DNA of 64,000 nt, from contig JBAWXN010000001.1 of the NCBI GenBank assembly GCA_037144045.1, positions 1,387 to 65,386 of the forward strand. Reading direction: 5' to 3'. Positions within the stretch are counted from its first letter, which is position 1, and each line of letters opens with the position of its first letter. The notes beneath the pieces are model-generated. The model was not told the DNA's origin and searched no databases. It saw nothing but the letters and a program-made list of their open reading frames with translations. Made by a program: the position numbers and the translations under genes. This DNA is from a bacterium. Its GTDB lineage: Bacteria > Patescibacteriota > Minisyncoccia > Phycocordibacterales > UBA1006. This document shows positions 4,341 through 28,299 of this stretch, piece by piece.

Positions 4341-4364
4341 AAACACCCGCGCGGGTGTTTTTTG
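4341..4364 (+). terminator. intrinsic terminator inside the r-protein cluster (cacccgcgcgggtg + TTTTTT)
   Basis: Perfect GC-rich palindrome 4344-4357 followed by a T6 tract, immediately after the rplW stop. Confidence 0.7.
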
Positions 4365-4382
4365 TTGAGAAAAAATTTAATA

Positions 4383-4802
4383 ATGGCTGCTAGTATGGTC
4401 TCCATGGAATTCCTATTTAAGAAATTTAAAACCTGGTTTCTTCTTAAAGAAAAACTTCATGCTATACACGCAAAGCCGCCTTATTTTAACGAGTCGGATA
4501 TTTGGTGGTGTAGTATGGGTGAAAATATTGGCGTTGAGGTTAATGGAAAGAGTGAGCTTTTTTCAAGACCAGTACTTGTTTTAAGAAAGTTGTCACGAGA
4601 ATCTTTTTTAGGTATTCCTTTAACATCTCAAGAAAAGAAGGGTACTTGGTACGTTCCCATTACTCAAGGAAAAAGTGTTTCCTATGCGTTGTTAAATCAA
4701 GTACGATTACTTTCTACCAAACGTCTTTCTTCCAAGATGGGAAGCCTTGATGAAATAGATTTTAATAAAGTAAAATCAGGTTTTATAGACCTGATTTTGT
4801 AA
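4383..4802 (+). CDS. MazF/PemK-family (CcdB/MazF fold) endoribonuclease toxin-like protein with an N-terminal extension of about 35 aa
   Basis: SDIWWCSMGENIGVEVNGKSELFSRPVLVL aligns to MazF/EndoA GD(L/V)(I/Y)W(V/F)D..P..G.E..G.RP(A/V)(L/V)V(L/I). ALLNQVRLLSTKRL aligns to ILLEQIRTIDKQRL of B. subtilis EndoA. First ATG is 4383; the ORF-track start 4362 is a TTG inside the terminator T-tract. Confidence 0.6.
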   Translation: MAASMVSMEFLFKKFKTWFLLKEKLHAIHAKPPYFNESDIWWCSMGENIGVEVNGKSELFSRPVLVLRKLSRESFLGIPLTSQEKKGTWYVPITQGKSVSYALLNQVRLLSTKRLSSKMGSLDEIDFNKVKSGFIDLIL

Positions 4803-4932
4803 TATTTCCACTACTTGAGTGGACCGCGGGAAATCCCCGAAAGTAATTTAATTATAACCATGACGCTCCTAGTGTCAACATGGTACATTACTTACTTTAT
4901 TAAAAGTTTAGAAATAGCTGATTCAGTATTAG

Positions 4933-5975: not shown

Positions 5976-5996
5976 ATCCCTACGGGGATTTTTTGT
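5976..5996 (+). terminator. intrinsic terminator after rplB (atccc-tacg-gggat + T-run)
   Basis: hairpin followed by TTTTTTG. Confidence 0.6.
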
Positions 5997-6011
5997 TGGA
6001 AAAAATATGTA

Positions 6012-6038
6012 ATAAAAAACCACCCTATTACAGGTGGC
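6012..6038 (-). terminator. intrinsic terminator for the convergent minus-strand gene (ccacc-tattacag-ggtgg, A-run on plus = T-run on minus)
   Basis: hairpin 6020-6037 preceded on the plus strand by AAAAAA. Confidence 0.5.
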
Positions 6039-6063
6039 TCAAGACCGCGAGATCCTTGATTAA

Positions 6064-7665
6064 TTATGTAGTTTTTTTAGTTCTGAGCACAAACGTAAGT
6101 GATACATACCGTTTGCCTACAGGTAGCCCTGTTTTGGCAACAGTAGTAACTTCTTGTGCAGTGGCTAATGCTTTATCACCTAAACGAGTACTAATATACG
6201 TTGCTCGGTTCAATGCTAAGTCCTCATTTTTTGCATAAGGAAGGACATCTGCAGTGCCGGTAACAATAATACTAAACCGCATCGGCATTTGAGCTGATAT
6301 GTCACTTAATTCTTCACTTACTACGTTGCTGCAGTAATAGAAAAAATTAGCAATGGTGGGTATTTCGAATTCACCAACAGGAAACAGTTGTTGAGTGGTA
6401 TCGCACCCGTTAAGTAATACTTCATAAGTAGTATCGTTAATAGCTCGAGCACTTAAACACGTGCCACGAAGTTCTTTCCTGTTACTCAGTTCAACTTCAA
6501 GATTGCGACTCACTGCTTTTTCCAGGGAATAGGCAGTATAGCTTACTTTTTTGCCGTACCGTGGTTTTGGTTGAACCACTACAGTGTCCGATGATTGTAG
6601 CTTTTCAGTAGGGATAACCGATTGAGGAGCAACTGATTTCGGTCGCGCCACTACCTTGGTAAGACCAAGGACACAGCTGTAATATGACTCAAGGTTTGCA
6701 ATCGTCCCTTTGGTAAGACCGAGGTCTTTCAAGTACCCATTCGACTGAAATTTTTCCCCCGCATCCCATAGGTCGAGGAGGTTGATCTTCATTTGGATAT
6801 TCATAGGTGCCTCACCTAATGTTGCTAGTTGCAAGAAACAGAGTTCCTTTACAATATCAGCATTAACATTACCCCATACATTCAATCGTTGCGCATTCGC
6901 CTCCTTAAATATATCAGTATTTCCCGCATTTAATGCAACCAGTACTTTCGTAGCTGGTGCCGCTTCAACGGATTCCGGATGTAATATGAGTTCTTTCGTT
7001 GCGGTGCAGTTGGGAAACTCACTAATCGTTTGTTTCTTGCCACCGCATGTGCAGGTACGCATGTCTTGCTTGTGGTAGTAACAATTCACTTGTTCCTGCC
7101 AAAGCGCCATGTAACCTTGTGCTTTTAAGCTGTCTTGGTCCCATGTATTCAATGAATTATACAAACGCATAATGTGTTCATAATGATCTTGAATACGCAC
7201 ATTTTCGGAATAGAATAATTCGCCCTGGATCTTCACCGTATAGTAATAGATTTGTCCCAGGACGTTAGTTGGTGGAACTGCTTTCACATTCATCTCTATT
7301 TCATCAATAGTAATACCTTTACCAATATCAGTAGTAAAAGAAAACAGACTAATATGCTTTTCAGCAGCTGTTTGCTCATACCAAGCACCAATGCCGGGGA
7401 ACACTTCTTCAAGTTTCTTTTTCATATTCGGGCACAATGCCTCGTATTTCCAGATTTGTTTCTGGATGGTTGGGTTTTTGCCGGCTTCGAAAGTAATTTT
7501 CTCCGCAGCGAATTTTTCTTGTGCGGAAATTGATCCAAGTTTCTGTAACGCAGCGTACTTACCGCTGGCGTCCTTCTTGGAAAGATAAATAGCGCGTACA
7601 TTTTGCGCATACGTGGTTGCAATGCTTATAGTGCATAGCAAGAGAATAAGCCCTAATTTTTTCAT
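6064..7665 (-). CDS. secreted Cys-rich hypothetical protein (signal peptide) with a possible degenerate OmpA-like C-terminal motif
   Basis: N-terminal MKKLGLILLLCTISIATTYA signal peptide; many Cys (CTCGGKK, PNCTATKE). C-terminal IVTGTADVLPYAKNEDLALNRATYISTRLGD resembles the OmpA_C core (GHTD..G....N..LS..RA..V..YL). No other recognisable domain. Confidence 0.55.
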   Translation of the reverse strand: MKKLGLILLLCTISIATTYAQNVRAIYLSKKDASGKYAALQKLGSISAQEKFAAEKITFEAGKNPTIQKQIWKYEALCPNMKKKLEEVFPGIGAWYEQTAAEKHISLFSFTTDIGKGITIDEIEMNVKAVPPTNVLGQIYYYTVKIQGELFYSENVRIQDHYEHIMRLYNSLNTWDQDSLKAQGYMALWQEQVNCYYHKQDMRTCTCGGKKQTISEFPNCTATKELILHPESVEAAPATKVLVALNAGNTDIFKEANAQRLNVWGNVNADIVKELCFLQLATLGEAPMNIQMKINLLDLWDAGEKFQSNGYLKDLGLTKGTIANLESYYSCVLGLTKVVARPKSVAPQSVIPTEKLQSSDTVVVQPKPRYGKKVSYTAYSLEKAVSRNLEVELSNRKELRGTCLSARAINDTTYEVLLNGCDTTQQLFPVGEFEIPTIANFFYYCSNVVSEELSDISAQMPMRFSIIVTGTADVLPYAKNEDLALNRATYISTRLGDKALATAQEVTTVAKTGLPVGKRYVSLTFVLRTKKTT

Positions 7666-7790
7666 TCTTAAGTTTTAAATGTTTGGTAATATAATTCTTA
7701 ATCATAATAACAGACTTATTAAAAAAGTCAAGTGAGTACAGGGTCTTTTAGAACGAGATTAACTATAGGTCGCATTTCCCAAGGAACCCC

Positions 7791-7819
7791 TTGACAAAAA
7801 AACTTAAAAATGCTTTAAT
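7791..7819 (+). promoter_or_regulatory. candidate promoter (TTGACA -17- TTTAAT) for the flotillin-like gene
   Basis: consensus -35 with a weak -10, about 190 nt upstream of the ATG at 8009 in the divergent intergenic region. Confidence 0.3.
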
Positions 7820-8008
7820 AGCCCGGAATGGTTCGTTGAACACTCGTGATTTTCTGTGCCTTATAGGTACACAAACTCACCGAACATGATTTACCGCTTG
7901 CTTTAGCAAGGTTCATCACTCAGGTAATCAGAGCTGATCACTCTTAGAAAATGGTCTGGTATCATTGCACCAGAAGCAATAAATCTTCAAAACATCAATT
8001 AATTTTAG

Positions 8009-10387
8009 ATGATAGCAACAATTTTGAGCTTCATAGCTCATTTCATAATACCTTTGGCGATACTCGCACTGGTATTGTTTGTATTGTATAACTCCGTAAC
8101 TATTGCCGGTGGTGATGAAATTATTACCCTGGAAAGAAAGTATTTCGGAAAACACATGCCAGATGGTAGAACCGTAGCGCTTAGTGATGAGGTAGGTATG
8201 CAGGCCCGTGTTTTAGGACCAGGAGTGCATTGGCTTATTCCATTTATTTATTCTACAAAGAAACACAAGTTTTTGGTTATACCTAAGAACAAGGTGGGAG
8301 TAGTAAGAGCGATTACCGGTGCGCCAATTCCTTCAGGCTCGTTTATGGCGAAAGCGGTAGACTGTGACCTGTTTCAGGATGGTGAAAAGTTCCTTAAAAA
8401 TGGCGGTGAAAAAGGTGCTCAGTTGGCTATTTTGCCGGAAGGTGAATACAAAATCAACCCGCACTTATTTCAGGTCGTTGAAGAGGATGCTATCCTGGTA
8501 GAAGACAATGAAGTAGCGGTGATTGAATCTATTGCCGGTCAGCAAGTAAAACGCTCAGGTGGTAACTTTGGTTCCCCTGTAGAATGCGATAACTTCCAAA
8601 ACGCACAAATGTTCTTGGAAAATGGCGGTCAGAAGGGTCCACAGATAGCATTCCTTACGCCTGGTATTTATCGTATTAATACTATTTTGTTCTCGGTAGT
8701 TAAGAAACCAATTACGGTTATTCCGGGTGGTATGATGGGGCTTGTAGAAGCAACGGACGGTGCCCAAATTTCGGCTGGTCGACTTCTTGCAAAAGAGGTA
8801 GATGGCCATAACAACTTCTTCGATGGCGAGGCATTTATTAAAAATGGCGGTGAAAAAGGTAGACAACTTCAGGTGTTAAAACCAGGAACTTACCGTTTGA
8901 ATCCACTATTGTTCCGCGTTGTGGAGAAGGTTGAATGGACACACATTGATTCGAACCAGGTTGGTATCGTTACGGTAAACGAAGGTGAGCCGGTAAAAGG
9001 TGAAGCTATTGCTGCCGATAAGGTGCCATTAGCTGACCATAATAGTTACCAAGATCCTGCAAAATACCTTGCGGTAAAAGGCCAAAAAGGTTTGCAGCAA
9101 GAAGTGCTTCGTGCTGGTAACTACATCATAAACCCATGGTTTGCGAGCGTAGAAAAAACACCAATGACGGAAATTCTGATTGGTACTTGTGGTGTTGTAA
9201 CAAGTTTCGTAGGAGAAGAAGGTGAGGATTTAACTAAAGACGACAAGAACGTTAACGCGAAAATTGTTGCAAATGGTAAGAAGGGTATATGGACAGAACC
9301 ATTAAGCCCGGGCTTGCATCCGATTAATACTCGTGTGTGCAAGATTACTATTGTACCTACCACACAAATTTTGTTGAGCTGGGCGGATGATACCTCCAGT
9401 GCACACAAGTTTGATGAAGGTTTGAAAACAATTGAACTACTTACCGCTGATGCATTCAAAGTAAACATGGATGTGCGTGTGATCATTCACATTGCCATGG
9501 CTGATGCTTCAAAAGTGGTAGCGAACCTGGGTTCGGTGCAGAACATGATTGCGCAAGTTCTTGAGCCTGCTATTTCTTCGCATTTCCGTAACGCAGCGCA
9601 AAAAGTCCAAGCATTGAAATTGCTTGACGAGCGTAGCGAATTACAGGAAGCTGCTAAGATACATATTCAGGGAATTTTGAAATCGCATAACATCGAGTCG
9701 AAAGACACTATGATTGCAGCGATAGTATTACCTCCGGCATTGACCAAAACAGTAACTGATCGTCAGTTGGCTGAACAGGAGAAGAAAACCTACCAAACTC
9801 AAAAAGAGGCTCAATTTGAAAAACGAGAACTGGAAAACGCAACAGCTCAAGCAAATGCTCAGGCTGACGTTGTGAAATCTGAGCGTGATGTTGAAATTCA
9901 AAAGAACATCGCGGCTGGTAAGGTAGAAGCTGCAACTGGTGCGAAAGAAGCGGCAGTATTGGATGCTACCGGTAAGGCAGAAGCGAGAAAACTTTCGGCA
10001 ACTGCTGAGGCAGAAGCTGTAAAGGTTACTGCGAATGCGAATGCTGAGGCTACCAAGGTGAATGCAATTGCAGATGCTGAGGCTAAGGAGAAAGTAGGTC
10101 TTGCAGAAGCGAAGGTTATCCTTGAAAAGGGTAAATCTACTGCAGAGGCTTACAAGCTGGAAGTAGGTGCGATGGGACAAGAAAACTTCGGTAGAATTAA
10201 TGCTCTGAAAGAGATTAAGGATCTGAAGTTGAAACTGGTTCCTGATGTGCTTATTGTGGGCGGTGGCGAAGGCGGTGGCTCTATTGATAATTTCATGAAG
10301 TTAAACCTGCTTGAAAAAGTAACTGGTAAAGACTTCTTGGAGTTAGCAAAACCTGCTGGCGACACAACTGAAGCCCCAAAGGCCTAA
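8009..10387 (+). CDS. flotillin/YqiK-like SPFH-domain membrane protein with five tandem N-terminal repeats and a C-terminal Ala/Glu-rich flotillin domain
   Basis: N-terminal TM helix. Five repeats of the unit F.DGE.FLKNGGEKG.QL..L.PG.Y.INP.LF.VV. SPFH core (KVNMDVRVIIHIAMAD...) aligns to E. coli YqiK. EA-rich coiled-coil repeats (AEAEAVKVTANANAEATKVNAIADAEAKEK) are typical of flotillins. Confidence 0.75.
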   Translation: MIATILSFIAHFIIPLAILALVLFVLYNSVTIAGGDEIITLERKYFGKHMPDGRTVALSDEVGMQARVLGPGVHWLIPFIYSTKKHKFLVIPKNKVGVVRAITGAPIPSGSFMAKAVDCDLFQDGEKFLKNGGEKGAQLAILPEGEYKINPHLFQVVEEDAILVEDNEVAVIESIAGQQVKRSGGNFGSPVECDNFQNAQMFLENGGQKGPQIAFLTPGIYRINTILFSVVKKPITVIPGGMMGLVEATDGAQISAGRLLAKEVDGHNNFFDGEAFIKNGGEKGRQLQVLKPGTYRLNPLLFRVVEKVEWTHIDSNQVGIVTVNEGEPVKGEAIAADKVPLADHNSYQDPAKYLAVKGQKGLQQEVLRAGNYIINPWFASVEKTPMTEILIGTCGVVTSFVGEEGEDLTKDDKNVNAKIVANGKKGIWTEPLSPGLHPINTRVCKITIVPTTQILLSWADDTSSAHKFDEGLKTIELLTADAFKVNMDVRVIIHIAMADASKVVANLGSVQNMIAQVLEPAISSHFRNAAQKVQALKLLDERSELQEAAKIHIQGILKSHNIESKDTMIAAIVLPPALTKTVTDRQLAEQEKKTYQTQKEAQFEKRELENATAQANAQADVVKSERDVEIQKNIAAGKVEAATGAKEAAVLDATGKAEARKLSATAEAEAVKVTANANAEATKVNAIADAEAKEKVGLAEAKVILEKGKSTAEAYKLEVGAMGQENFGRINALKEIKDLKLKLVPDVLIVGGGEGGGSIDNFMKLNLLEKVTGKDFLELAKPAGDTTEAPKA

Positions 10388-10420
10388 GTTAATAATTGAA
10401 TACTAGTGCTCACGCACGGA

Positions 10421-10452
10421 CCCGTTCCAATTTGGAACGGGTTTTTTATTTT
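10421..10452 (+). terminator. intrinsic terminator after the flotillin-like gene (cccgttcc-aattt-ggaacggg + T-run)
   Basis: 8-bp stem then TTTTTTATTTT. Confidence 0.65.
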
Positions 10453-10460
10453 ATAACATG

Positions 10461-10496
10461 CAAAAAATAAACCCTGTCGCAATGACAGGGTTTTTG
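10461..10496. terminator. bidirectional intrinsic terminator (A-run, ccctgtc-gcaat-gacaggg, T-run)
   Basis: 7-bp stem flanked by AAAAAATAA upstream and TTTTT downstream; serves the convergent minus-strand gene ending at 10507. Confidence 0.6.
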
Positions 10497-10506
10497 GGTA
10501 ATTAAA

Positions 10507-12303
10507 TTATGACCAGAACATATACCAAGGCTTAGGATAGAATGATGCAAGTTTTGTTACTACTTTTGCCCACTCAGTACTTCTTCTTGGAAATAATTCA
10601 AGTAACGCCTCACATGGTTGTGGTTGACGCGCATTGGATAATTCCGATTCAAGTAATGTGCAGGCACGTTTGTAACATAGAACAGCATATTCTGATTCTG
10701 GAGGAAATAAGTACATTTGCTTCATTGCTACAGCTACAGTGCTGTATTTTGAAATTTTATGTTTTGTTTCCTCGTCTTGTAGGCGTAATTCGTTCATTTG
10801 CTTATTACGTAACCGTTCTTCCTCTGCGGGGTCGGTTGCTGGAGCTTCTTCTGTTACTACAAGAGGAGCAATGACTACAGGTTGAACCGCTGCTGGGGTA
10901 GATTGAGTTACTTTCGGTCCAAAGCGTTGTGCGAGGCGATACATGGCGAACGAGGCGTCTCTGATGCGGTAATCGCGCGCGTCACTTTCATTAGTGAATA
11001 ACTCAACTAAACGCAAATCAAGAAGGTCTTCTTCAGTGCTTGGTGAGTCTACATAATTTTCAAAGCCGGTAAGCTCCTTCACTGATCGTGCGCGTGACTG
11101 TTCTTCTTTTAATAGTCGAGACAGTTTTGTTTGTGCAAGGTTGCCAATGTAGGTATCGGTATCAACCAGGTTATGAAGGTCATCCTTGGTTTGTATAAGG
11201 TTAACAATCCGTTCGGTAACCTGCTTTTTTAACGGATCGCCAAATTCAAGGTCCTCAAGGTGATTTTCAAGTTCAGATACATCAGTAGTTTTTTCCAGAT
11301 ACTGTGCAAGTAGTATGTGTTCACGCTTAGCAGCCATTCTGCCTATACGTGAATCGCTGCTGAATGATTCCTGGATACTACCCAAAACTTCAATAACAGT
11401 ATCAGTAAATGCATTGCACTGATTAATAGCGCCTTGGGCAAGTACTTCTTGAGCTTCAGAGCCGTCATTGAACGAATCGTGATGTTCCCAAATTTTTTCA
11501 GGATCACGTCCGCACAATTGTACGATCTGTTGAGCCAAGTAAACATTTGAATCGTCCTCTGAATCAATGAAGTCATCCAAATCGTTCACATCGTTCAGGG
11601 AACGAATATTATTGATGGCTCGTTGAACCAGTTCACGATGTTTATTCTGTACCAAGTAATATTCCAAACTGTCTTCCGAAAACACATCATTAATCAATTC
11701 GTGGGTTTCTGAAGGGGAAGTGCACGTATTAATAAGCTTCTGTGCCAAATACTGCATTGATTCCTTACGGTATGCATCGTTTTGATATAATGAAACAAGG
11801 TCATCAAAGTCCTTAGTTTCGTTAATAATGCGTTGCTCAAGGGTTTTAATCTTTGCAAAAATTGCTAACTCTTCAGCACTACCGTCAGGAGTGTATTTAT
11901 TTAACTCCTCCAAATCGTCTAAATCATCAGTCGCAGAGAGCTTTTGAGCAATAATACGTACTAATTTTTCATACGCAATGATAAATTCACCATCGGTGTA
12001 GTCGAGTTGTTCAAGGATTCCATAAAGTTCCTCAGGATCCTCCGTGTCTGCAATTTCTTGCAACGTGGTGACCCCTGGTTCTTCCTCCCATTCAGGACCT
12101 TTGTAGTGATTTTTGGGTTCTACTACCGTAGACGGCATATTTTTAGTACCTTGTTGCAGTTGGTCAAAGATAGTTACTGGTTTATCAGTTAAAAAGTAGG
12201 GTCGTTGGGACTGATAGGTCCCATCGAGTATCTTTTTCAGTTCAGACACGGAAATACCGGTATCTTCTGAAAGTTTACGTAAATGAACGTCTTTACTGGT
12301 CAT
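10507..12303 (-). CDS. hypothetical protein with an N-terminal helix-turn-helix-like segment followed by about five acidic 35-aa repeats
   Basis: N-terminal LRKLSEDTGISVSELKKIL is HTH-like. Repeats share D(L/F)DDL..L......AQKL(I/S) / YLAQ(K/Q)(L/I)(I/V) spacing; very acidic. No database family recognisable from sequence alone. Confidence 0.5.
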   Translation of the reverse strand: MTSKDVHLRKLSEDTGISVSELKKILDGTYQSQRPYFLTDKPVTIFDQLQQGTKNMPSTVVEPKNHYKGPEWEEEPGVTTLQEIADTEDPEELYGILEQLDYTDGEFIIAYEKLVRIIAQKLSATDDLDDLEELNKYTPDGSAEELAIFAKIKTLEQRIINETKDFDDLVSLYQNDAYRKESMQYLAQKLINTCTSPSETHELINDVFSEDSLEYYLVQNKHRELVQRAINNIRSLNDVNDLDDFIDSEDDSNVYLAQQIVQLCGRDPEKIWEHHDSFNDGSEAQEVLAQGAINQCNAFTDTVIEVLGSIQESFSSDSRIGRMAAKREHILLAQYLEKTTDVSELENHLEDLEFGDPLKKQVTERIVNLIQTKDDLHNLVDTDTYIGNLAQTKLSRLLKEEQSRARSVKELTGFENYVDSPSTEEDLLDLRLVELFTNESDARDYRIRDASFAMYRLAQRFGPKVTQSTPAAVQPVVIAPLVVTEEAPATDPAEEERLRNKQMNELRLQDEETKHKISKYSTVAVAMKQMYLFPPESEYAVLCYKRACTLLESELSNARQPQPCEALLELFPRRSTEWAKVVTKLASFYPKPWYMFWS

Positions 12304-12438
12304 AATGTAAGTATGTTGTTTTTGGTGTACGAAATGGTTATTACTGTAGCATTGATTGATTGTTTTGTCAAAAAATAGTGTTTTGAATTTACTAGAGTGA
12401 AATAAGTTAAAATTTGCAGGGGAGTGTATGGTTTTTTA

Positions 12439-12467
12439 TTGACATATAAGGATTTTCTTGCTATATT
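12439..12467 (+). promoter_or_regulatory. near-consensus sigma70-like promoter (TTGACA -17- TATATT) restarting transcription of rpsS to rplE
   Basis: -35 TTGACA 12439-12444, 17-nt spacer, -10 TATATT 12462-12467, followed by a leader of about 150 nt containing an inverted repeat gtatctcg/cgagatac. Confidence 0.55.
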
Positions 12468-12616
12468 GCTCCTTGTCTTGTTTCTCACCCGAGACAGTAT
12501 CTCGATAAATTTTTGGACCGTTACTTCCTAAAAATTTGGACGAGATACACCTATTAATCAGCCCTTATCGTGCACTGCTAAACAGTACCTGTTTTAGTAT
12601 CACACAAAATATTTAG

Positions 12617-12967
12617 ATGACACGTTCACTTAAAAAAGGCCCTTATATCGACATTAAATTGTTGAAAAAAGTAGAAGGGAAAAAGCCGCTTGAAACCGGC
12701 GTTATCAAGACTTGGGCTCGCGCATGCGTGATCTGCCCGGAAATGATTGGTTTCACATTTGGTGTACATAACGGACGCAAGCACCTTGAAGTGCTGGTAT
12801 CTGAAGACATGGTCGGACACCGCCTGGGTGAATTTTCTCCAACTCGAACCTTCCACAAACACGGAGGTAAGATGCAAAAAGAAATTGAACAAAAGGCTCG
12901 AGAATCAGAAATTGCATCAGCCAAAGCCGCTAAAGCGTCTCCAGCTGCCGCTCCAAAGAAAAAATAG
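12617..12967 (+). CDS. rpsS: 30S ribosomal protein S19 with a Lys/Ala-rich C-terminal extension
   Basis: [19 protein letters not shown]...[12 protein letters not shown]...[14 protein letters not shown]19 signature; extra 25-aa KA-rich tail. Confidence 0.93.
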
Positions 12968-15895: not shown

Positions 15896-15902
15896 CAAAT
15901 TG

Positions 15903-15923
15903 CTACCGAAAGGTAGTTTTTTG
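15903..15923 (+). terminator. intrinsic terminator directly after rplE (ctacc-gaaa-ggtag + TTTTTT)
   Basis: tetraloop hairpin plus T6; ends the r-protein transcript before the rest of the spc genes would normally follow. Confidence 0.7.
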
Positions 15924-15952
15924 TTTTGGTAAATTTACGATATACTAGACTC

Positions 15953-18900
15953 ATGAAATTTTTTATACGAATCCTAATACTAGGAATGTTCTTTGTAACT
16001 GCTCACACTGCTTTTGCAGCTACTATTACCGTAAATACAACAACTCCTGGAATAGTAAGTGATGGAGAGTGTTCATTGTCAGAAGCGATTAATAACGTCA
16101 ATGGCAACAATGATACTTCAGGGGGAGATTGTGCATCCGGAGAAGCTCTCCCTGTTGTTGATCGTATCGAATTTGCAATTCCTGGTGCCGGTCCACACAC
16201 CATAGCAACCAATGCCCAGTTTGGGATTATGGAGGCTGTAGTTATTGATGGAACAACACAGCTAGGTACTGCGTGTCCTCTCGAAGGAGGACTGCGTCAG
16301 CTTCAGATTAACATTGACGGAGGGGGTATTTCTTCTTCGTCTAATATTTTTGATATTCCTCCTGGAGCAAACAACGTAACTATTAAGGGGTTAGCAATTT
16401 ATGGAAACGTATTTGGATCAGGTATTACTACGCAAGCAAACAATACTACGGTTCAATGTACAAACATCGGAACTGATAGTGATGGTTTAGTCGCGCATCC
16501 TAACTTGTATGGAATCAGTATTTATAATAACGGATTAGTGGCTACCTCTGGACATATATTTGGTGGTCCCAATCCGGGAGATGGAAATCTTGTCTCAGGT
16601 AATAACGTGACCAATTCAGGTAGTTTTTTTGACGGTACGGGTATTACTTGTTCGGCAAGTAATGTTTTGATTCAGGGAAACTGGATTGGAATTGATAGTA
16701 CGGGTCAGTCAATTCTAGCAAACAAAAATACAGGTATTCAGTGTGGTAATTCTGGTTCAGAGTTGATTACTTACGAGAATATTCAGATTCTCGACAATGT
16801 TATTTCTGGTAATGGAACAACGGGTGGTCAAAGTTTTTCTCCAGGTATTAATATTGGAGGTGCTGAAATTGGGGGAACCAACGAATTAATTACTAATTTG
16901 GTAATTAAAAGAAATATCATAGGTCTATCTGCTGATGGTTTGACTGCTATTCCCAATGAAGGCGATGGAATTTTTGTAGGAACTACTTCTTCTGCAGTGA
17001 CTATTGGTGGAATTGGTGATGGAAATATTCTTTCAGGGAACGGGGGGAACGGTTTAACATTGGGGTATGATGTTTCAAATATTCAGGTGCTAGGAAACAC
17101 TATCGGATTAAATGCTTTGGGTCTGGCCGCTATTCCTAATAGCCTGCAAGGTATTAGTTTTTCCCCACCCCTCTTTGTGGGTGGTGGTACTGTAACCAAT
17201 GTTACTATTGGAGGAACAAATATCGGAGAGGGAAATACGATTTCTTGCAACAACTCTGGCGGTATCAATATTCCTGCAAATACTAGTAATATCTCTATTA
17301 TCGGGAATACAATTGGTCCCAATAGTAGCGGACAGAATTGCGATACAGGATTACAAAGCGTTGGAATTTATGCTACTGGTACAACCAATCTTACTATTGA
17401 CGCTAACATAATTAAATATCGGTATCTAGCAATACGGATGTATGCACTTGGTGGTTCGTCCGCGATAAAAAATAATACTATTACAGACAACAATACGGGT
17501 ATTTCAATTGTTTCTTCTTCAACAGTCAATCCCATGGTGAGTGTTACGGGAAATAGTATTACAAATAATACTAATATGGGTATTGATCTTTCAATAGATG
17601 CGGACGACAATGGTGTCGGCGACAATATAGGAATTCAAAATACAAATGATATCAATGACACGGACAGTGGGCCAAATAATTATTTAAATCATCCTGTTGT
17701 TCTCATGACGTTACAAAATGGGGCAGATACGAGCGTCTTGTATGGGCTTGATGTCCCCGTGGGATACTATCGGGTAGAATTTTTCATCAACCCAACCAAC
17801 GGAGTAGATGCATCCGGATATGGAGAAGGAGAAGTATATAAAGGATTTTCAGTTATTACGAAATCAGCTTTGGGTTTTGAAACCTATAGCAAGATATTAA
17901 CGAATACAAATCTGAATGATGGTGTAACGGCGACAGTTACCGAATGTACTGATGCGTCTTGTACGAACTATATTGGCACTTCAGAATTTTCAAACACTGC
18001 ACCTCCAGGAGTTGACTACGATGCAACTGATTATACAGCGTCACACGTACTTAATACGGTTTACTTGGGTGCCTGTGTAAACGGTGATAATGGATCAAGT
18101 AGTAATACTGATGCCGATGGTCCCAATCAGGCTGGTGCGTATTTGGGTACGGGGCCGTGTATTGATGACCGAGATGGTGTAGTATTTGGTAGTTCGACTT
18201 CTGGTGGTATTACCCCAGCGTCAATATCTGGAGTCACTCTGTTTTCACAAGGTGGTGATTTTAGTGGAGCACTCAATGATATGACAGTTTCAGGAACATA
18301 TACGGGTGCGGATCATGTGAATGTGTTAGTTTTGATATTCTCTGTTTCTCCTGGGAATTCAGACGATGCAGATTATTTCCTTCCAGTGTTTAACATAGGA
18401 AGTGACTATTTAACTGGTTCTCCTACTAAAATTACTCCAGGAATTCCACAATCAATTGGATCAGGCGTATCTATCATGTTTCAAAATGGTACTGGTCACA
18501 CAGCATTTGATACTGGCTCAGGCACAGGTCCAGTTTTAGTTTTTAGTGCTAATAGTGAGAGCGAAGCATTTACTTTTACTCAAAATACGGGAACATTTCT
18601 TCCTGGAGCTACTACTGCTGTCCAAACTACCGCATCAGCAAATGGATATGTACATGTATGGTTAGATAGTAACAACGATGGCGATTTTCTAGACACGGGG
18701 GAACAGGTTGTTGAGAGTACTATCATAACTTCTGGAGAACATATTGTTAATTTTACTGCACCGATCCAGGCGGGAACCTATCCTGTACGGGTGCGGTATA
18801 CTTCATATGAAGATACCAATCTTGGTCCGACAGGACTTGCAAATGATGGTGAAGTAGAAGATTATCAACTTACGGTAGCTGTCCCGGTTTCTACTGCAGG

Positions 18901-19312
18901 AGGGTCTACGGGGTATCTTCCAAGGCTTGCATTTAAACCGGTTACAGTGCCGGCAGGTGTTTCATCAAATAATTCAGCAGAAGATATTTTGGGTTCAGGT
19001 ATCTGTTCAACAGAGCTTATTATTAAAGATCTTATGAAACAAGGAGATAGAAATGGTAAATATGGTGCTTATAATAAAAAAACAGTGAAAGACGTGAACC
19101 TTCTTCAAGTTCATATTAATCGAATACTTGCCGCCCAATACAACCAGGCAGCAGGTCCAACGGATGGAATTTTTGGAAAACTCACTAAGCGCGGGGTGGA
19201 ACGGTTGCAAACTGCACTCAATAGTTTCCTAAAGCCAGCACCAAAACTGAAAATAGATGGTGTTGTGGGTCCTTTTACTCGAGATGCGATTAATAATAGT
19301 TGTGGTAAATAA
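15953..19312 (+). CDS. giant secreted right-handed parallel beta-helix repeat protein with a GEVED domain and a C-terminal PG_binding_1-type peptidoglycan-binding domain
   Basis: Signal peptide MKFFIRILILGMFFVTAHTAFA. About 20 PbH1-like repeats (N..I.GN.IG.....G). ...DGEVEDYQLTV (GEVED motif). C-terminal LLQVHINRILAAQYNQAAGPTDGIFGKLTKRGVERLQ...IDGVVGPFTRDAIN resembles PG_binding_1. Confidence 0.7.
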   Translation: MKFFIRILILGMFFVTAHTAFAATITVNTTTPGIVSDGECSLSEAINNVNGNNDTSGGDCASGEALPVVDRIEFAIPGAGPHTIATNAQFGIMEAVVIDGTTQLGTACPLEGGLRQLQINIDGGGISSSSNIFDIPPGANNVTIKGLAIYGNVFGSGITTQANNTTVQCTNIGTDSDGLVAHPNLYGISIYNNGLVATSGHIFGGPNPGDGNLVSGNNVTNSGSFFDGTGITCSASNVLIQGNWIGIDSTGQSILANKNTGIQCGNSGSELITYENIQILDNVISGNGTTGGQSFSPGINIGGAEIGGTNELITNLVIKRNIIGLSADGLTAIPNEGDGIFVGTTSSAVTIGGIGDGNILSGNGGNGLTLGYDVSNIQVLGNTIGLNALGLAAIPNSLQGISFSPPLFVGGGTVTNVTIGGTNIGEGNTISCNNSGGINIPANTSNISIIGNTIGPNSSGQNCDTGLQSVGIYATGTTNLTIDANIIKYRYLAIRMYALGGSSAIKNNTITDNNTGISIVSSSTVNPMVSVTGNSITNNTNMGIDLSIDADDNGVGDNIGIQNTNDINDTDSGPNNYLNHPVVLMTLQNGADTSVLYGLDVPVGYYRVEFFINPTNGVDASGYGEGEVYKGFSVITKSALGFETYSKILTNTNLNDGVTATVTECTDASCTNYIGTSEFSNTAPPGVDYDATDYTASHVLNTVYLGACVNGDNGSSSNTDADGPNQAGAYLGTGPCIDDRDGVVFGSSTSGGITPASISGVTLFSQGGDFSGALNDMTVSGTYTGADHVNVLVLIFSVSPGNSDDADYFLPVFNIGSDYLTGSPTKITPGIPQSIGSGVSIMFQNGTGHTAFDTGSGTGPVLVFSANSESEAFTFTQNTGTFLPGATTAVQTTASANGYVHVWLDSNNDGDFLDTGEQVVESTIITSGEHIVNFTAPIQAGTYPVRVRYTSYEDTNLGPTGLANDGEVEDYQLTVAVPVSTAGGSTGYLPRLAFKPVTVPAGVSSNNSAEDILGSGICSTELIIKDLMKQGDRNGKYGAYNKKTVKDVNLLQVHINRILAAQYNQAAGPTDGIFGKLTKRGVERLQTALNSFLKPAPKLKIDGVVGPFTRDAINNSCGK

Positions 19313-19313
19313 A

Positions 19314-19333
19314 AAGCACCTACGGGTGTTTTT
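19314..19333 (+). terminator. intrinsic terminator (gcacc-tac-gggtg + TTTTTT)
   Basis: short GC hairpin plus T6 after the stop at 19312. Confidence 0.55.
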
Positions 19334-19392
19334 TGACTTACAGGAACGATTTTAGGTATAATAATCCTGTTTATCAAGATAACTAAAAAAAT

Positions 19393-22047: not shown

Positions 22048-24198
22048 ATGAACCGAGATTACCCATTGGAAAAGACACGAAACTTTGGAGTTATTGCCCA
22101 CATCGATGCGGGTAAAACAACTACTTCAGAACGTATTTTGTTCTACACCGGAATGTCCCACAAAATTGGAGAAGTGCATGAAGGTGCAGCAACCATGGAC
22201 TGGATGGAACAAGAAAAAGAACGAGGAATTACTATTACGTCAGCAGCGACGACTTGTTTTTGGACGCCTACTTATGTGGCAGACAAAAAAGACACTGCTA
22301 AAAAATTCCGATTTAACGTAATCGATACCCCAGGTCACATCGACTTTACTATTGAAGTACGACGATCACTCCGCGTGCTCGACGGTGCTCTCGTAGTATT
22401 CGACGGAGTAGCTGGAGTAGAACCTCAATCAGAAACTAACTGGCGTTATGCCGATGAAGGAAAAGTTCCTCGCATTTGTTTCATTAACAAACTCGACCGA
22501 ACAGGAGCTTCATTTGAACGTTCATACGCATCTATTCTTGATCGTTTGACTAAAAGTGCGGTTCGATTCCAAATTCCAATTGGTGAAGAAGAAAAAATGG
22601 AAGGAGTAGTAGATCTTTTGAAAATGAAGGCGTACTATTTCGAAGGAAACATGGGAACTGATGTGATTGAAAAAGAAATCCCTGAAAATCTTAAAGCTGA
22701 TGCTGAAAAGTATCATGCAATCCTCGTTGAAAAAATCGTTGAACACGATGAAACTATGATGATGGAATTCCTTGATGGGAAAACAGATTTCGATATTGAA
22801 GCTCTTAAAAAAGTAGCTCGAAAAGCAACCATTGCGAACGATATTGTTCCTGTATTTGCAGGAACAGCGCTTAAAAATAAAGGGGTACAACTTGCACTCG
22901 ATGCGGTGGTAGATTATTTGCCAGCACCGACAGATTTGAAAGATAACAAAGGGGTTAATCCAGATACTGGAGCAGAAGAAACCCGAAAAGCATCAGATAA
23001 TGAACCGCTTTCTGCGCTTGCCTTTAAAATTGCAACGGACCCATTCGTAGGACAATTGGTATTCTTCCGTGTCTATTCAGGTACGCTTGAAGCAGGTTCA
23101 TATGTGTTAAACACTCGAACAGGTAACAAGGAACGTATTGGACGTATTTTGCGAATGCATGCCAACGAACGTGAAGAAGTGAAAAAGGTGTTTGCAGGGG
23201 AAATTGCTGCAGCAGTAGGACTTAAAGAAACTACTACTTCAGACACGCTCTGTGACCCAGCTCACCCAATCGTTCTCGAAGAAATCAAGATTCCAGAACC
23301 AGTAGTAAGTCTTAAGATTGAACCAAAAACAAAGGCAGACCAAGAAAAAATGGGTATGGCTTTGAACCGATTGGCAGCAGAAGACCCAACCTTCCGAGTA
23401 ACTACTGATCCTGAAACTGCAGATACTATTATCTGGGGAATGGGAGAACTTCACTTGGATATTATTGTGGATCGTATGAAGCGAGAATTTACCGTTGAAG
23501 CAAACGTGGGACGACCACAAGTAGCTTACAAGGAAACCATTACGGGAACTGCTGAAGTGGATAACAAATATGTTAAACAATCAGGAGGTAAAGGACAGTA
23601 CGGTCATGTTAAAATCCGTATCAAGCCTATGGACCTTACGGTAGATCCAGCTGATCTTCCTAAGAACACGAAGCGTTCAGAAGGATTTGAATTCATCAAC
23701 AACATTAAAGGAGGGGTTATTCCACAAGAATTTATCGCTCCTGTTGAAAAGGGATTGAAAGAAGGAATGCAGCGAGGTGTCCTTGCTGGATACCAAATGG
23801 TAAACATTTCAGCGGACTTGTTTGATGGGTCATACCACGATGTAGACTCAAGTGAAATTGCCTTTAAGGTTGCAGCGTCACAAGCAATGCAAGAAGCGCT
23901 TGCGAAAGCGTCTCCGGTTATCCTTGAACCGATGATGAAAGTTGAAGTAACCATCCCAGAAAAATTCTTGGGAGATATTACCGGAAACGTATCATCTAAA
24001 CGTGGAATGATTGAAGGGGTAGACGATCGAGGAATGGTGAAAGCGGTTCGTGCGATTATGCCACTTTCAGAAATGTTCGGATATATGAACTCACTTCGAT
24101 CAATGACCGAAGGACGAGGATCATTCACTATGGAATTTACCCGTTATGACATCGTTCCTAAGAACGTTGCTGACGAAATTATTTCAAAGCGAAAATAA
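22048..24198 (+). CDS. fusA: elongation factor G
   Basis: [20 protein letters not shown]...DTPGHIDF...NKLDR G-domain plus full-length EF-G domains II-V. Confidence 0.95.
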
Positions 24199-24268
24199 TC
24201 CTGCCTCGCGTAAAGCTACGCAGGACACAAAATTTCCCATTGGGGGATTTTTTGTTACACTTATAAAT

Positions 24269-26656
24269 ATGACATTTGGTCGGAAAACTCTTTTTTCTGT
24301 TATTACGATTCTTTCAATCATTGGATATGGTTTTGTAGTTTTTGCGGTGGCACCAGTTGGAGGATATACTCCTGCTCAAACATTAAATCCTGCATGTGCA
24401 CCAGGTGATATTGATTGTGTGGTTCAAATGGCGGTAGTCATTGGGTCTTCTGTGATAAGCGGAATGCCGAATCAGGTGCTCTATACTGATACGGATGGTA
24501 AGGTTTTTGGTGATTCACAATTTACTCGTGACTCGACAACAGGAAATACAATTATTGGTGTGGCAAATGGGGTAGTTGCTTCGAATATGAGTATTTTGAA
24601 TACAGGGAATGTGCTCACTTGGGACGCAGATGTGAATGATTCAATCACAGATGGACTCATTCAAGGAAATAACCTAAATGGAGTTGGGATAAAAGGAAGT
24701 GCATTGGCTCATAGCAATACATCAACTTTTGAGTCAGCATCTTTCTTTGCTGGAGACACTACTGCTGTTGGTGGTAATCCATATGAAGCAAGTATGGCTT
24801 ATGTTCTTCCAGGAGGAATCAACGGGGCTTTTGCATATACTGTTAATGAAGAAGGATTAAAAGCAGACTACTATGATAGTGTAGGAAATATCAAAAGTCA
24901 GATTCTTCAAGAGGCAACAGGAAACACTATTTTATGGGATGCGGATACTACAGATGATATACAAGACTTGTTTGCGCAAAACCAAAACATTGGAGGTTCA
25001 CCCTTCAAAGGAAATGGTATTGCCCATGTTAATACAGCTACAGGAGAAAATGTTTATTTAGGAATTGGTGACGCAAGTGGTGTTGGGCAACGTCCTTTTA
25101 CAGGAATCATTGGATATCAAAATGCTGGTGGTACTCTTTTAAATGCATTAAGAGTGGATGATAGAGGTGCTGTAATAAGTCATCGTGACAGTGTTGCGAA
25201 TACGCAAGGATTCATGACCACATTTGGAGGTGGGAACCTGTCAGTTTGGAAGGCTGACACAACTGACACGATAATTACAAAACTTGAACAGACACAAGAC
25301 ATATTAGGACTTGGTGCTTTCTCAGGATCGGCTCTCACTTGGCAAGATACAGGTACTCAAGTAACAGGACTGGTGGGTGCTGTTGATGGAACTGGAACTG
25401 GACTTTTCCCGGGAAGTACTATTATGGCAACAACTAATGATGCATCTCTTGCGTCAGCAAGCCTTTCTACAAATTATGATACGTTAAGCTTGCAAGCAAC
25501 ACTTATAGCAAATGTTGCTAATGGGCCTGGTGATACAGGATTTGAGTTTGATAGGACGCGGGGAATTATTCGACGTAGAGACTACGGAACAGGTTTTGAG
25601 TCAGCATTTGAAGTTAATGGAAATAATGCGATCGCAAAATATACACTTAACGGTACCAATGAATACCAGACACAACTGGGTGATGGTACGTTCGCATTCC
25701 TGAATACAACTACAAATGATAAGTATCTATCGCTGGATTCAGTGTCAGGAATCATGAAGATAGCGCCACCAACAGGAGGAGATTTCGAAGTTAATACACT
25801 TACAACGAACAAAGTCGCATTTACAGTAATTCCTGATAACTTCTATGTGAAAATGGGAGATGGTGATAATGTTGCAAATCATACGTCATTGACAGTAGAC
25901 GACGCTTCACAAGCAATTACATTTGGTTATACTGGAAGTAGTTATACTTTCCCAGTTGGTGACGGTACTACTAACTACCTTCTTGCAACGGATGGCACAG
26001 GACAACTTTTCTGGCAAGATCCAACGATGGTCCCATCGGATCGATCACTCAAATCAAACATAGGTGGATTGTCGTATGGACTTGATACGTTAATGCAATT
26101 AAATCCAGTGTCTTATACCATGAATTCAAGTGGTAAAGAACAAATTGGATTCATTGCCCAAGAAGTAGAATCGTTAGTGCCAGAGCTGGTAGGGGAAGTT
26201 GCAAATGGTAAGAAAGGATTAGCCTACGGACAGATGACAGCAGTGATTGTAAAATCAGTTCAGCAGCTCAATTTGAAAATAGTCAACATTGAAAACTTTG
26301 CTGACGCTGAAAACAAAACATTCTTGAATAATTTGATTGCGTGGTTAGGTAGTGCAGCTAACGGTCTCGGAAAATTATTTGCCGGTGAAGTAGAAACAAA
26401 AAAACTTTGTATTGCTGACGATACAGGGAGTACTACGTGTATTACTAAATCACAGTTAGACGAATTTCTTACTCATCAAAATAATAGTCCAGGATCGAGT
26501 GTTGCACCTATTCCGCCTTTGGATAATCAGGGTGACAACTCGATACCAGTTCCAGGTCCAGATTTAGTATCTGATTCAGTACCAGAAACAGGACCAGGTC
26601 CACTACCTGTCGCACCAGATCCAATATCTGATCCGGTAATTGAAGAGGTTAATTAA
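24269..26656 (+). CDS. secreted fibre-like protein with a conserved N-terminal module and a C-terminal Peptidase_S74 / intramolecular chaperone (CIMCD-like) domain and Pro-rich tail
   Basis: Signal peptide ...IGYGFVVFA|VAPVGGYTPAQTLNPACAPGDIDCVV. C-terminal DRSLKSNIGGLSYGLDTLMQLNPVSYTMNSSGKEQIGFIAQEVESLVPELV (Ser/Lys dyad context) then WLGSAANGLGKLFAG..KKLCIADDTGSTTCITKSQLDEFL. Start chosen at ATG 24269; the ORF-track start 24146 overlaps the fusA 3' end. Confidence 0.7.
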   Translation: MTFGRKTLFSVITILSIIGYGFVVFAVAPVGGYTPAQTLNPACAPGDIDCVVQMAVVIGSSVISGMPNQVLYTDTDGKVFGDSQFTRDSTTGNTIIGVANGVVASNMSILNTGNVLTWDADVNDSITDGLIQGNNLNGVGIKGSALAHSNTSTFESASFFAGDTTAVGGNPYEASMAYVLPGGINGAFAYTVNEEGLKADYYDSVGNIKSQILQEATGNTILWDADTTDDIQDLFAQNQNIGGSPFKGNGIAHVNTATGENVYLGIGDASGVGQRPFTGIIGYQNAGGTLLNALRVDDRGAVISHRDSVANTQGFMTTFGGGNLSVWKADTTDTIITKLEQTQDILGLGAFSGSALTWQDTGTQVTGLVGAVDGTGTGLFPGSTIMATTNDASLASASLSTNYDTLSLQATLIANVANGPGDTGFEFDRTRGIIRRRDYGTGFESAFEVNGNNAIAKYTLNGTNEYQTQLGDGTFAFLNTTTNDKYLSLDSVSGIMKIAPPTGGDFEVNTLTTNKVAFTVIPDNFYVKMGDGDNVANHTSLTVDDASQAITFGYTGSSYTFPVGDGTTNYLLATDGTGQLFWQDPTMVPSDRSLKSNIGGLSYGLDTLMQLNPVSYTMNSSGKEQIGFIAQEVESLVPELVGEVANGKKGLAYGQMTAVIVKSVQQLNLKIVNIENFADAENKTFLNNLIAWLGSAANGLGKLFAGEVETKKLCIADDTGSTTCITKSQLDEFLTHQNNSPGSSVAPIPPLDNQGDNSIPVPGPDLVSDSVPETGPGPLPVAPDPISDPVIEEVN

Positions 26657-26693
26657 TAACTTACATGTAGCGTGCCTTTAAAACAATAAAAAA

Positions 26694-26720
26694 CCAAACG
26701 CTCTTGCGCTTGGTTTTTTA
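26694..26720 (+). terminator. intrinsic terminator (ccaaacgc-tctt-gcgcttgg + TTTTTT)
   Basis: 8-bp stem (one mismatch) plus T6. Confidence 0.55.
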
Positions 26721-26739
26721 TATATGTTAGTATGATTAT

Positions 26740-28272: not shown

Positions 28273-28277
28273 TAAAA

Positions 28278-28299
28278 AACTCCGTAAAGGAGTTTTTTA
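28278..28299 (+). terminator. intrinsic terminator (aactcc-gtaaa-ggagtt + TTTTTT)
   Basis: 6-bp stem plus T6. Confidence 0.6.

Follow-up and report, generated by a model that had tools for sequence, protein, structure and literature searches.

Between the genes for ribosomal proteins L2 (rplB) and S19 (rpsS) of a Patescibacteriota genome (Minisyncoccia; Phycocordibacterales; UBA1006) lies a block of three genes, one of which has its closest described counterparts in the vault particle and in the membrane scaffolds of the SPFH superfamily. The block was analyzed within a 64,000-nucleotide stretch of contig JBAWXN010000001.1 (assembly GCA_037144045.1), referred to throughout as the window; its three open reading frames (ORFs) are named A533, B792 and C598, and loci of relatives are numbered L001–L103. 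The origin of vaults is an open question in eukaryogenesis, and MVP (major vault protein) has its N-termini at the open waist of the vault shell. Ribosomal-protein junctions are normally among the most rigid of bacterial gene orders.

Five-repeat MVP homologues have been modelled from Asgard archaea (PMC12962969, 2026), and prokaryotic homologues are stated there to be known in only a few Bacteria. Bacterial band-7 proteins were predicted in silico to fold like MVP (Daly et al. 2013, PMC3762200; Sokolskyi 2019, bioRxiv 10.1101/872010), the putative examples in these two reports including Herpetosiphon A9AUD4 ('band 7 protein') and Saprospira H6L4P8. In the FloT/YqiK group of SPFH proteins (SPFH2), the scaffold gene has an adjacent partner gene of the NfeD type (PMC2636767). 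We found no literature report of insertions in the ribosomal operons of Patescibacteria.

We favor, with moderate confidence, a reading in which the L2-S19 block is the composite filling of an accessory-gene slot, where A533 stands beside a separate B792/C598 cassette, B792 would form a half-vault, and the body of B792 has been exchanged by recombination. The unit of study becomes the B792-C598 pair rather than the trio, ribosomal-protein junctions act as accessory-gene slots in one Patescibacteria clade, and one cargo gene, B792, shows allele replacement with breakpoints inside the gene.

Organization of the L2-S19 block

The L2 gene ends at 5958 and the S19 gene starts at 12617, leaving a gap of 6658 bp that contains A533 (6064–7665, minus strand, 533 aa), B792 (8009–10387, plus strand, 792 aa) and C598 (10507–12303, minus strand, 598 aa). 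These coordinates and strands agree with an earlier interpretation made from the letters alone (the sequence-only reading), which was also right in placing all three genes outside translation. The L2-S19 arrangement recurs in an independent Logan assembly (L001), in the NCBI metagenome-assembled genome (MAG; locus tag WCG20_) and in two related assemblies (L002 and L003), so it is not an assembly artefact.

Transcription signals were placed by a consensus scan. A terminator-like hairpin with a T-run follows rplB (5976–5989, plus strand), back-to-back with a terminator-like hairpin following A533 (6040–6017, minus strand), and A533 has a promoter-like site, TTGACT-16-TATTAT, at 7731–7704 (minus strand). 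The segment 7751–12429, delimited by blastn breakpoints, is a variable slot that holds B792 with its promoter and leader, both terminators, and C598 with its promoter. The B792 promoter-like site, TTGACA-17-TTTAAT (7791–7819, plus strand), is conserved in L002, L003 and L098; it is missing from the scan's list because the −10 hexamer rule of the scan excludes it. A terminator-like hairpin with a 12-bp stem (10418–10444, plus strand) follows B792 and converges with that of C598 (10-bp stem, 10493–10469, minus strand), and C598 is preceded by TTGACA-17-TACAGT at 12371–12343 (minus strand). Beyond the slot, a promoter-like site with a TG-extended −10 (TTGACA-17-TATATT, 11/12 matches; 12439–12467, plus strand) is predicted to restart transcription for rpsS-rplV-rpsC and the genes downstream, and it is here that homology to L004 and L005 picks up again. 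The back-to-back terminators and this last promoter had been reported before at the same places. Across a 10 kb region the promoter-like sites are not enriched (18 versus 20.5 in shuffled sequence) and the terminator-like sites are in slight excess (14 versus 9.0); individual sites are informative because of their placement, not their number.

The block does not have the marks of a mobile genomic island. No integrase or transposase is present among its genes and there is no tRNA, att-like or direct repeats sought at the slot borders yielded only generic terminator hairpins, and the GC content of 0.38–0.44 equals that of the flanks.

Inheritance of the three genes

The trio is found together only in the close relatives L002 and L003 (L2 99–100% identical), at the same place, which is synteny by descent; the proposal of the sequence-only reading that the three genes form a co-inherited module fails on this distribution and on the arrangements seen in other relatives. 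In L004 (L2 98.9% identical) a homologue of A533 lies by L2 and the gap contains eight other genes, coding for an OmpA-domain protein, an ABC ATPase and permease, an AAA+ ATPase, a BBP2-like protein and others, and in L005 (L2 95.6%) an A533 homologue is alone in the gap. In L006–L008 an A533 homologue (40% identical) is downstream of IF-2/RbfA, at a different locus. B792 and C598 are both missing from L004 and L005, and in blastn comparison of L004 with the window homology ends at 7750 and restarts at 12430, such that the unit inserted or deleted consists of B792 and C598, together with the promoter and terminator of each, and nothing more. The reciprocal situation is seen in L098 and L099 (L2 94%), where the order is L2, a 795-aa Band_7 protein, a 605-aa homologue of C598, two small ORFs and S19, with no A533; this C598 homologue shares 36% identity and is convergent to the Band_7 gene, as in the window. 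On a metagenome contig (L096), found in a scan with a 7-sequence alignment of C598, the gene for an 860-aa relative of B792 is followed after 140 bp by a same-strand gene for a 578-aa relative of C598 (31% identity), the two lying beside L19. A533 segregates independently of B792 and C598, and B792 and C598 have been gained, lost and relocated together within this group of the Candidate Phyla Radiation (CPR).

A competing explanation is that B792 and C598 have simply been neighbors from a common ancestor onward, without being linked in function, the block then consisting of three unrelated genes at a permissive junction. The arrangements in the window, L002, L003 and L098 could indeed all stem from a single ancestral one, and several observations speak against a linked pair. 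Most relatives of B792 have no C598 neighbor, and those of a second Patescibacterium, Chitinophagales and Thermoanaerobaculia each stand alone, the genes next to them being unrelated; two distant relatives of C598 (30% and 22% identity) lack an SPFH gene within the DNA available for them, namely ±8 kb for L103 and contigs of at most 5 kb for L100–L102. The linkage rests on few lineages, and in the window B792 and C598 are convergent, hence not co-transcribed, with separate promoters and terminators that are themselves consensus matches only. On the other side, L096 keeps the pair at a different locus, in tandem and closely spaced, despite the low identity of its C598, and in L004 and L005 the two genes behave as one indel. 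We therefore think it unlikely that the two are no more than neighbors, and take the B792-C598 pair as the cassette. Neither the neighbors of B792 relatives in other phyla nor the L004 cargo proteins include anything similar to A533 or C598. The most distant member of the C598 family examined (L100, 1983–4356; 22% identity) is convergent to a pair of genes coding for a bpMoxR AAA+ ATPase and a VWA protein.

Predicted architecture of B792

B792 begins with a hydrophobic stretch (aa 1–29; a transmembrane (TM) helix at aa 2–29 in the model), followed by about five internal repeats with a 74-aa period (score 237, versus a shuffle maximum of 43), a Band_7 domain (PF01145) at aa 424–602 (97.7 bits versus a cut-off of 23.6, E 1.1e-27), and long Ala/Glu-rich helices, predicted at aa 584–739. 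The repeat units resemble the first strands of the protein's own SPFH domain. In an AlphaFold2 (AF2) model built on 70 sequences the repeats form five domains (~aa 30–403) of five strands each, mostly with a short helix, and the predicted local distance difference test (pLDDT) score is 80–95 through aa 400. When Foldseek is run against the PDB, MVP structures occupy the first 16 places (E 3.6e-10 to 5e-5), with target-normalized TM-scores of 0.51–0.57 to the MVP R1–R7 repeat-only crystals, and HflK/C, prohibitin, stomatin, flotillin and erlin come next. The domain order of B792 is predicted to copy that of MVP. A profile of the B792 family searched against the PDB finds human flotillin-2 (2e-8, in the coiled coil), prohibitin (6.5e-5), HflC and QmcA, and single-sequence PDB searches returned nothing for B792 or A533 and chance matches only for C598.

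The sequence-only reading had described B792 as a flotillin/YqiK-like, repeat-expanded scaffold, and as an SPFH-family membrane scaffold with expanded repeats the description stands. The assignment to FloT/YqiK does not: the NCBIfam FloT model (NF058507) gives 12.3 bits against a cut-off of 700, A533 and C598, the neighbors of B792, have no Pfam match of any kind, and NfeD is absent from the related loci examined.

The B792 family has more than 2700 relatives, the best 120 of which are all 730–830 aa long, carry only the Band_7 annotation, and derive from MAGs that bear the labels Bacteroidota, Verrucomicrobiota, Acidobacteriota, Myxococcota, Gammaproteobacteria and Patescibacteria; relatives are labelled 'YqiK' in several databases. 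Median pairwise identity in this ~780-aa SPFH family is 75% across phyla, and a Patescibacteria copy and one from a Thermoanaerobaculia MAG are 82% identical. Such strong conservation suggests either lateral transfer or very strong constraint. In Chitinophagales the ~780-aa SPFH gene lies just downstream of the rpoA-L17 ribosomal cluster. A tblastn search of plasmids and phages found distant relatives of B792 (at most 40% identical) on Ralstonia megaplasmids and on a 642-kb uncultured phage, and gave no evidence of the 65%-identity B792 family on these mobile elements.

In 111 of 121 family members more Lys and Arg residues lie on the C-terminal side of the TM helix than on its N-terminal side, and by this positive-inside charge bias the bulk of B792 is most likely cytoplasmic. 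By the logic of the solved SPFH domes and the vault shell, from which we infer the assembly, many copies of B792 would pack laterally through their repeats into a wall, with the N-termini at the rim sitting in the membrane, the SPFH domain forming a shoulder, and the C-terminal helices closing the cap. The outcome would be a tall membrane-standing dome, or 'half-vault', likely on the cytoplasmic face. A broader and distinctly more tentative proposal is that proteins of the B792 type could be a large, pan-bacterial family of membrane-anchored half-vaults, with walls of MVP-type repeat domains, that link the SPFH cages structurally to the free eukaryotic vault; in this CPR lineage C598 would be a dedicated partner or cargo docking through its aromatic tail, and the cage body would be swapped between strains by recombination. 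Thousands of entries of this type are labelled only 'SPFH/YqiK', at a median identity of ~75% across phyla. If these are vault-like, they would add bacterial examples by the thousand, part of them from orders that include cultivable members (such as Chitinophagales) or from lineages of Myxococcota, and the membrane anchor would hint at a route by which an SPFH dome on a membrane could have turned into a free particle.

There are counterweights to the half-vault architecture. The model of B792 is that of a monomer, much of the SPFH and helical part has pLDDT values below 50, and the full-length alignments with MVP have a root-mean-square deviation of ~80 Å and TM-scores of 0.16–0.27, leaving the repeats as the only part that matches MVP well, by homology or by analogy. 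MVP is not found by the B792 family profile, and the Pfam Vault and MVP_shoulder models are silent on B792. The topology is a prediction from charge bias, to which the B792 relative in L096 is an exception.

Ribosomal junctions as accessory-gene slots

In this CPR lineage of the Paceibacteria type, the EF-Tu/S10 cluster is broken up into units that carry separate promoter- and terminator-like sites, and the junctions after the terminators (L23/L2, L2/S19, after L5 and after EF-G) hold strain-variable cargo. Four slots were defined by blastn breakpoints relative to four relatives, and the breakpoints are sharp and shared. The first (4364–4932) contains a MazF-like ORF in the window, is empty in L002, and is occupied by 358-aa and 59-aa ORFs in L003, by a 258-aa ORF in L004 and by two glycosyltransferase genes in L098. 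The second (7751–12429) contains B792 and C598 in the window, and ~9.4 kb with eight other genes in L004. The third (15900–19330) contains the gene for a 1128-aa protein that is absent from this junction in L002 and L003, and the fourth (24200–28340) contains genes for two Peptidase_S74 proteins that are absent from L002. A similar GC hairpin with a T-run borders each slot, at the start in three of them, including those after L23 (4332–4364) and EF-G (24230–24256), and at the end in the post-L5 slot, where it follows the 1128-aa gene (19303–19335). The ribosomal unit that follows bears a promoter-like site of its own in the consensus scan.

The L2-S19 gap was surveyed in 80 GTDB genomes, the CPR figures referring to the 11 nearest CPR genomes that yielded both genes. 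In the sampled non-CPR genomes the gap is 3–298 bp, and it is expanded in ten of the 11 CPR genomes, to 546–1120 bp and once to 4067 bp, by ORFs that are mutually unrelated. Cargo between L2 and S19 is typical for this clade and unusual for bacteria generally; the earlier remark that the cargo is unusual for the locus stands for bacteria as a whole and fails for the clade. Several of these gaps have recognizable contents. That of a Kaiserbacteria MAG (L020) contains a pair of AbrB/MazE-like and PemK/MazF-like genes and that of L031 the gene for a 135-aa membrane protein, both judged by eye from the sequence, and that of L027 has a 230-aa ORF resembling, also by eye, a Y1 transposase of the IS200/RayT type, adjoining a 1007-aa ORF with PKD and CARDB domains (Pfam).

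The alternative cargo in L004 (585–9792) includes a 353-aa protein with a match to BBP2 (a beta-barrel porin family), a 644-aa OmpA-domain protein, a pair of ABC transporter proteins and an AAA+ ATPase that bears a proteasomal-ATPase OB domain. CPR bacteria are thought to lack an outer membrane, and BBP2 and OmpA-domain cargo is unexpected in one of them.

Probable allele replacement in B792

Compared with L002, the closest relative, nucleotide identity is 94–97% through the leader and codons 1–40 of B792 (7833–8132; proportion of synonymous differences, pS, 0.07), falls to 54–78% over the B792 body (8133–10332; pS 0.6–0.9), and returns to 83–98% at the 3' end of the gene and the terminators (10333–10532). 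A second divergent patch (10533–10732; 51–53% to L002) covers the last ~75 codons of C598. The genomic background pS versus L002 is 0.45–0.51. With a pS of 0.70, at which it is saturated, and 64% amino-acid identity, B792 is the sole outlier among the genes compared, whereas synonymous divergence (dS) is at background level in A533 (0.79), C598 (0.86) and a 333-aa ORF farther downstream (0.81), ordinary genes having values of 0.70–0.80 (SIMPL, bPH_2 and an S74 protein).

Relationships among the alleles point the same way. The L003 B792 is closest to that of L098 (68.7%) and only 54% identical to that of the window, whereas for C598 the window and L003 share 63% and L003 and L098 share 34%, and for L2 the corresponding figures are 98.9% and 93.3%. 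The B792 relationships contradict those of C598 and L2, and the B792 tree conflicts with the genome tree. The simplest reading of these sequences is homologous replacement of the B792 body between conserved flanks; the body would have been exchanged by recombination, leaving sister genomes with deeply different alleles. With a ratio of nonsynonymous to synonymous divergence (dN/dS) of ~0.15, the alleles are under purifying selection.

Ribosomal-protein and EF-Tu genes have a dS of only 0.03–0.11 versus L002 (L24, 0.25), a contrast of up to ~25-fold with ordinary genes, and EF-G and a 124-aa ORF are intermediate (0.20–0.25). Synonymous constraint in highly expressed genes is established, and probably explains the low ribosomal values. 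The idea that all genes of the block are hyperdivergent, which the low ribosomal dS had suggested, was rejected on the grounds that ordinary genes show the same dS as the block and only B792 lies outside it.

Upstream of B792 is a conserved 5' leader of ~180 nt (7827–8008, plus strand) with the motif TCACTCAGGTAATCAGAG at 7916–7933. Together with the promoter (7791–8008) it is more conserved than the B792 body, at 94–97% identity to L002, and can still be recognized in L098, whose C598 has no more than 36% identity. The leader motif TCACTCAGNTAATCNGAG is confined to five loci bearing this leader. RNAalifold predicts nine pairs with compensatory changes, from only four sequences; the leader's minimum free energy lies in the ordinary range (z = −0.84), and Rfam returned nothing for it (window 1–30000, E ≤ 1), so it belongs to no known RNA family.

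Allele replacement could also be accounted for if the slot were a conflict hotspot, involved in phage defense or host interaction, with B792 a fast-turnover arms-race gene acting as a phage target or as a membrane effector of the abortive-infection type. The replacement of the B792 body between sister genomes with sharp breakpoints and a tree incongruent with that of the genomes would fit, as would the cargo in the other slots and genomes: the solitary MazF/PemK toxin in a neighboring slot, the AbrB/MazE-like and PemK/MazF-like pair recognized by eye in the Kaiserbacteria L2-S19 gap, the ABC/AAA_21 and AAA+ ATPases in L004, and the tail-fiber-like Peptidase_S74 proteins. The genes themselves give a different picture. 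PADLOC finds no match for B792, A533 or the MazF-like gene, and for C598 only AbiEii at E 0.009, which is at chance level; a PHROGs scan of A533, B792 and C598 gave nothing useful; a scan of viral contigs found no close relative of B792, and a fold search of BFVD found only ordinary SPFH folds. Outside this lineage the family is extremely conserved across phyla, unlike typical defense genes, and the purifying selection on B792 is a further point against an arms race. We regard a conflict hotspot as improbable, and retain the composite slot with a recombined B792 body.

Properties of C598 and A533

C598 belongs to a rare family of acidic proteins predicted to be cytoplasmic and composed of helical repeats, and it travels with B792. 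Its isoelectric point is 4.62, and both a TM segment and a signal peptide are lacking. The internal repeats are weak but real (self-match score 69, shuffle maximum 52): iterative profile hidden Markov model (HMM) searches reveal at least six degenerate units with an adjacent spacing of 29–39 aa and bigger gaps where units are undetected. The sequence-only reading, which listed five 35-aa repeats in an acidic protein, was correct as to the acidity and the presence of repeats. A Pro/Glu-rich linker leads to a C-terminal domain ending in FYPKPWYMFW, and the family as a whole shares an N-terminal motif (L..LS..TGIS...LK.ILDG), the linker, and the tail F-Y-P-K-P-W-Y-x-F-W. Only 17 clusters, mostly of 555–605 aa proteins, were found among 1.84 billion representative proteins in a profile search, and the family has no Pfam or PDB relative. 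A regulatory role had been suggested for C598, and nothing bears it out beyond a sub-threshold helix-turn-helix (HTH)-like motif: the isolated N-terminus gives HTH_10 at E 0.058 (13.7 bits versus a cut-off of 23.1) and HTH_26 at E 0.084 in Pfam, and no member of the C598 family matches an HTH model. C598 could be the partner of the B792 cassette, either as an adaptor or as cargo, with its conserved aromatic C-terminal tail a candidate contact; the linkage of the genes is shown, and the physical interaction is inferred.

A533 has an N-terminus of MKK, a hydrophobic stretch and A-Q-N, which reads as a signal peptide, and 11 Cys residues, eight of which are invariant among six homologues, in agreement with its earlier description as a Cys-rich secreted protein. 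Those six homologues are the only ones detected among 5.8 billion proteins. There is no Pfam, NCBIfam or PDB sequence match, and the Pfam OmpA model (PF00691) is silent, also when the C-terminal 133 aa are searched in isolation at E ≤ 10. The AF2 model of A533, computed from the six sequences (mean pLDDT 65), has a confident helical N-domain (aa 21–204), a low-confidence middle containing Cys residues, and a confident alpha/beta domain (aa 378–530). Foldseek matches of this C-terminal domain are peptidoglycan-binding domains, the best being of the OmpA/MotB type: Tp0624 (1.5e-4), Salmonella MotB (3.9e-4, TM-score 0.52), PA0833 and SiiA. The motif VTGTAD...N..LA..RA is invariant in the family (T471, A472, D473, N480, L483, A484 and R487), and on the model the domain has the OmpA/MotB fold with the conserved D...R peptidoglycan-contact motif. 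The previously proposed OmpA_C-like tail holds for the predicted fold and motif and not for membership of the Pfam family. A533 is in all likelihood an exported protein with an OmpA/MotB-like domain, with the reservation that the domain call comes from a six-sequence model of modest pLDDT and from Foldseek E values of 1e-4 to 1e-2. It is restricted to its lineage, and its C-terminal domain would tether it non-covalently to peptidoglycan.

The notion that A533, B792 and C598 constitute one cell-envelope or membrane-microdomain module of scaffold, exported partner and regulator draws on their adjacency in three related genomes, on an exported, probably wall-binding A533 next to a membrane scaffold, and on the invariance of the C598 HTH-like motif within its close family, but it is largely refuted by the independent distribution of A533 (present without the other two in L004, L005 and L006–L008, and missing beside B792 and C598 in L098/L099 and L096), and with the bulk of B792 probably cytoplasmic and A533 outside the membrane, the HTH motif below every Pfam threshold in a family without Pfam or PDB matches, and a separate promoter and terminator for each gene, we give it very little credence.

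Other genes in the window

EF-Tu (833–2089) heads the ribosomal cluster and is followed by S10, L3, L4 and L23 (to 4331). The PemK/MazF-like ORF (4362–4802, plus strand, 146 aa; Pfam E 1.2e-11) comes next and is solitary, there being no room for an upstream antitoxin between L23 and L2. L2 (5110–5958) lies between this ORF and the block, beyond which S19 (12617–12967) is followed by L22, S3, L16, S17, L14, L24 and L5 (to 15895). The 1128-aa protein (15926–19312, plus strand), encoded directly after L5, is secreted-looking and has Beta_helix, GEVED and PG_binding_1 domains; two ORFs without assignment, S12, S7 and EF-G follow. The order in 833–24198 (EF-Tu-S10...L5, the 333-aa and 124-aa ORFs, S12-S7-EF-G) is unusual yet conserved in the lineage. 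L5 is usually expected to precede S14-S8-L6 and onward, which are replaced here by the 333-aa and 124-aa ORFs and then S12-S7-EF-G. The 333-aa ORF is fast-evolving, with 77% amino-acid identity to L002, and the 124-aa ORF is 99% identical.

Three Peptidase_S74 proteins are encoded on the plus strand (94–714, 24146–26656 and 26740–28272), with an internal DNA repeat common to the two located after EF-G (26069–26116 and 27679–27726). Peptidase_S74 is an intramolecular chaperone of endosialidase and tail-fiber proteins. A complete-looking type IV pilus cluster (30379–43644, plus strand) includes PilM, PilB-like and PilT-like ATPases, PilC, several N_methyl pilins and a prepilin peptidase, and the rest of the window also codes for LigA, GatA and GyrA. 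A scan of L2 in GTDB species representatives found no close relative of this genome: the nearest L2 proteins are only 57–64% identical and belong to Paceibacterota, Zambryskiibacteriota, Kaiserbacteria and Minisyncoccia MAGs.

Comparison with known systems

A533 resembles OmpA_C/MotB proteins (PF00691) in its predicted C-terminal fold and D...R motif, and differs in that the Pfam OmpA model is silent on it and that its 350-residue N-terminal part has no known relative. B792 and the flotillins of the FloT/YqiK group (SPFH2; Hinderhofer et al. 2009, PMC2636767) share the Band_7 domain, an N-terminal anchor and an Ala/Glu-rich C-terminal coiled coil, but in B792 the anchor and the SPFH domain are separated by ~370 additional residues that form repeat domains. 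The cages of HflK/C, prohibitin, stomatin and erlin (7VHQ, 8RRH and 9OH9) have a similar SPFH fold and are likewise N-terminally anchored rings closed by C-terminal helices. They lack the wall of repeat domains predicted for B792; no partner protease such as FtsH is linked to B792, and its predicted cytoplasmic orientation is opposite to that of HflK/C, which faces the periplasm.

The putative bacterial MVPs, compared by description only, come from Bacteroidota, Myxococcota and Chloroflexota, overlapping the phyla of B792 homologues. They were found by BLAST with MVP, by which B792 is undetectable, and the reports on them mention no member from Patescibacteria, nor a membrane anchor, a partner gene or an allelic mosaic. 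MVP itself (PDB 4V60 and 9Z4W; R1–R7 in 3GNF and 3GF5) and B792 appear to have the same domain order, of beta-repeats, an SPFH-like shoulder and a long helix, with nine repeats of ~55 aa in MVP and five of ~74 aa in B792. The N-terminal TM helix of B792 is unlike MVP and argues against a free two-halved particle, and the vault RNA, PARP4 and TEP1 of vaults have no known counterparts for B792. We place B792 in the SPFH superfamily, and in neither FloT/YqiK nor MVP; by analogy, it may be likened in its mode of working to a membrane-anchored MVP.

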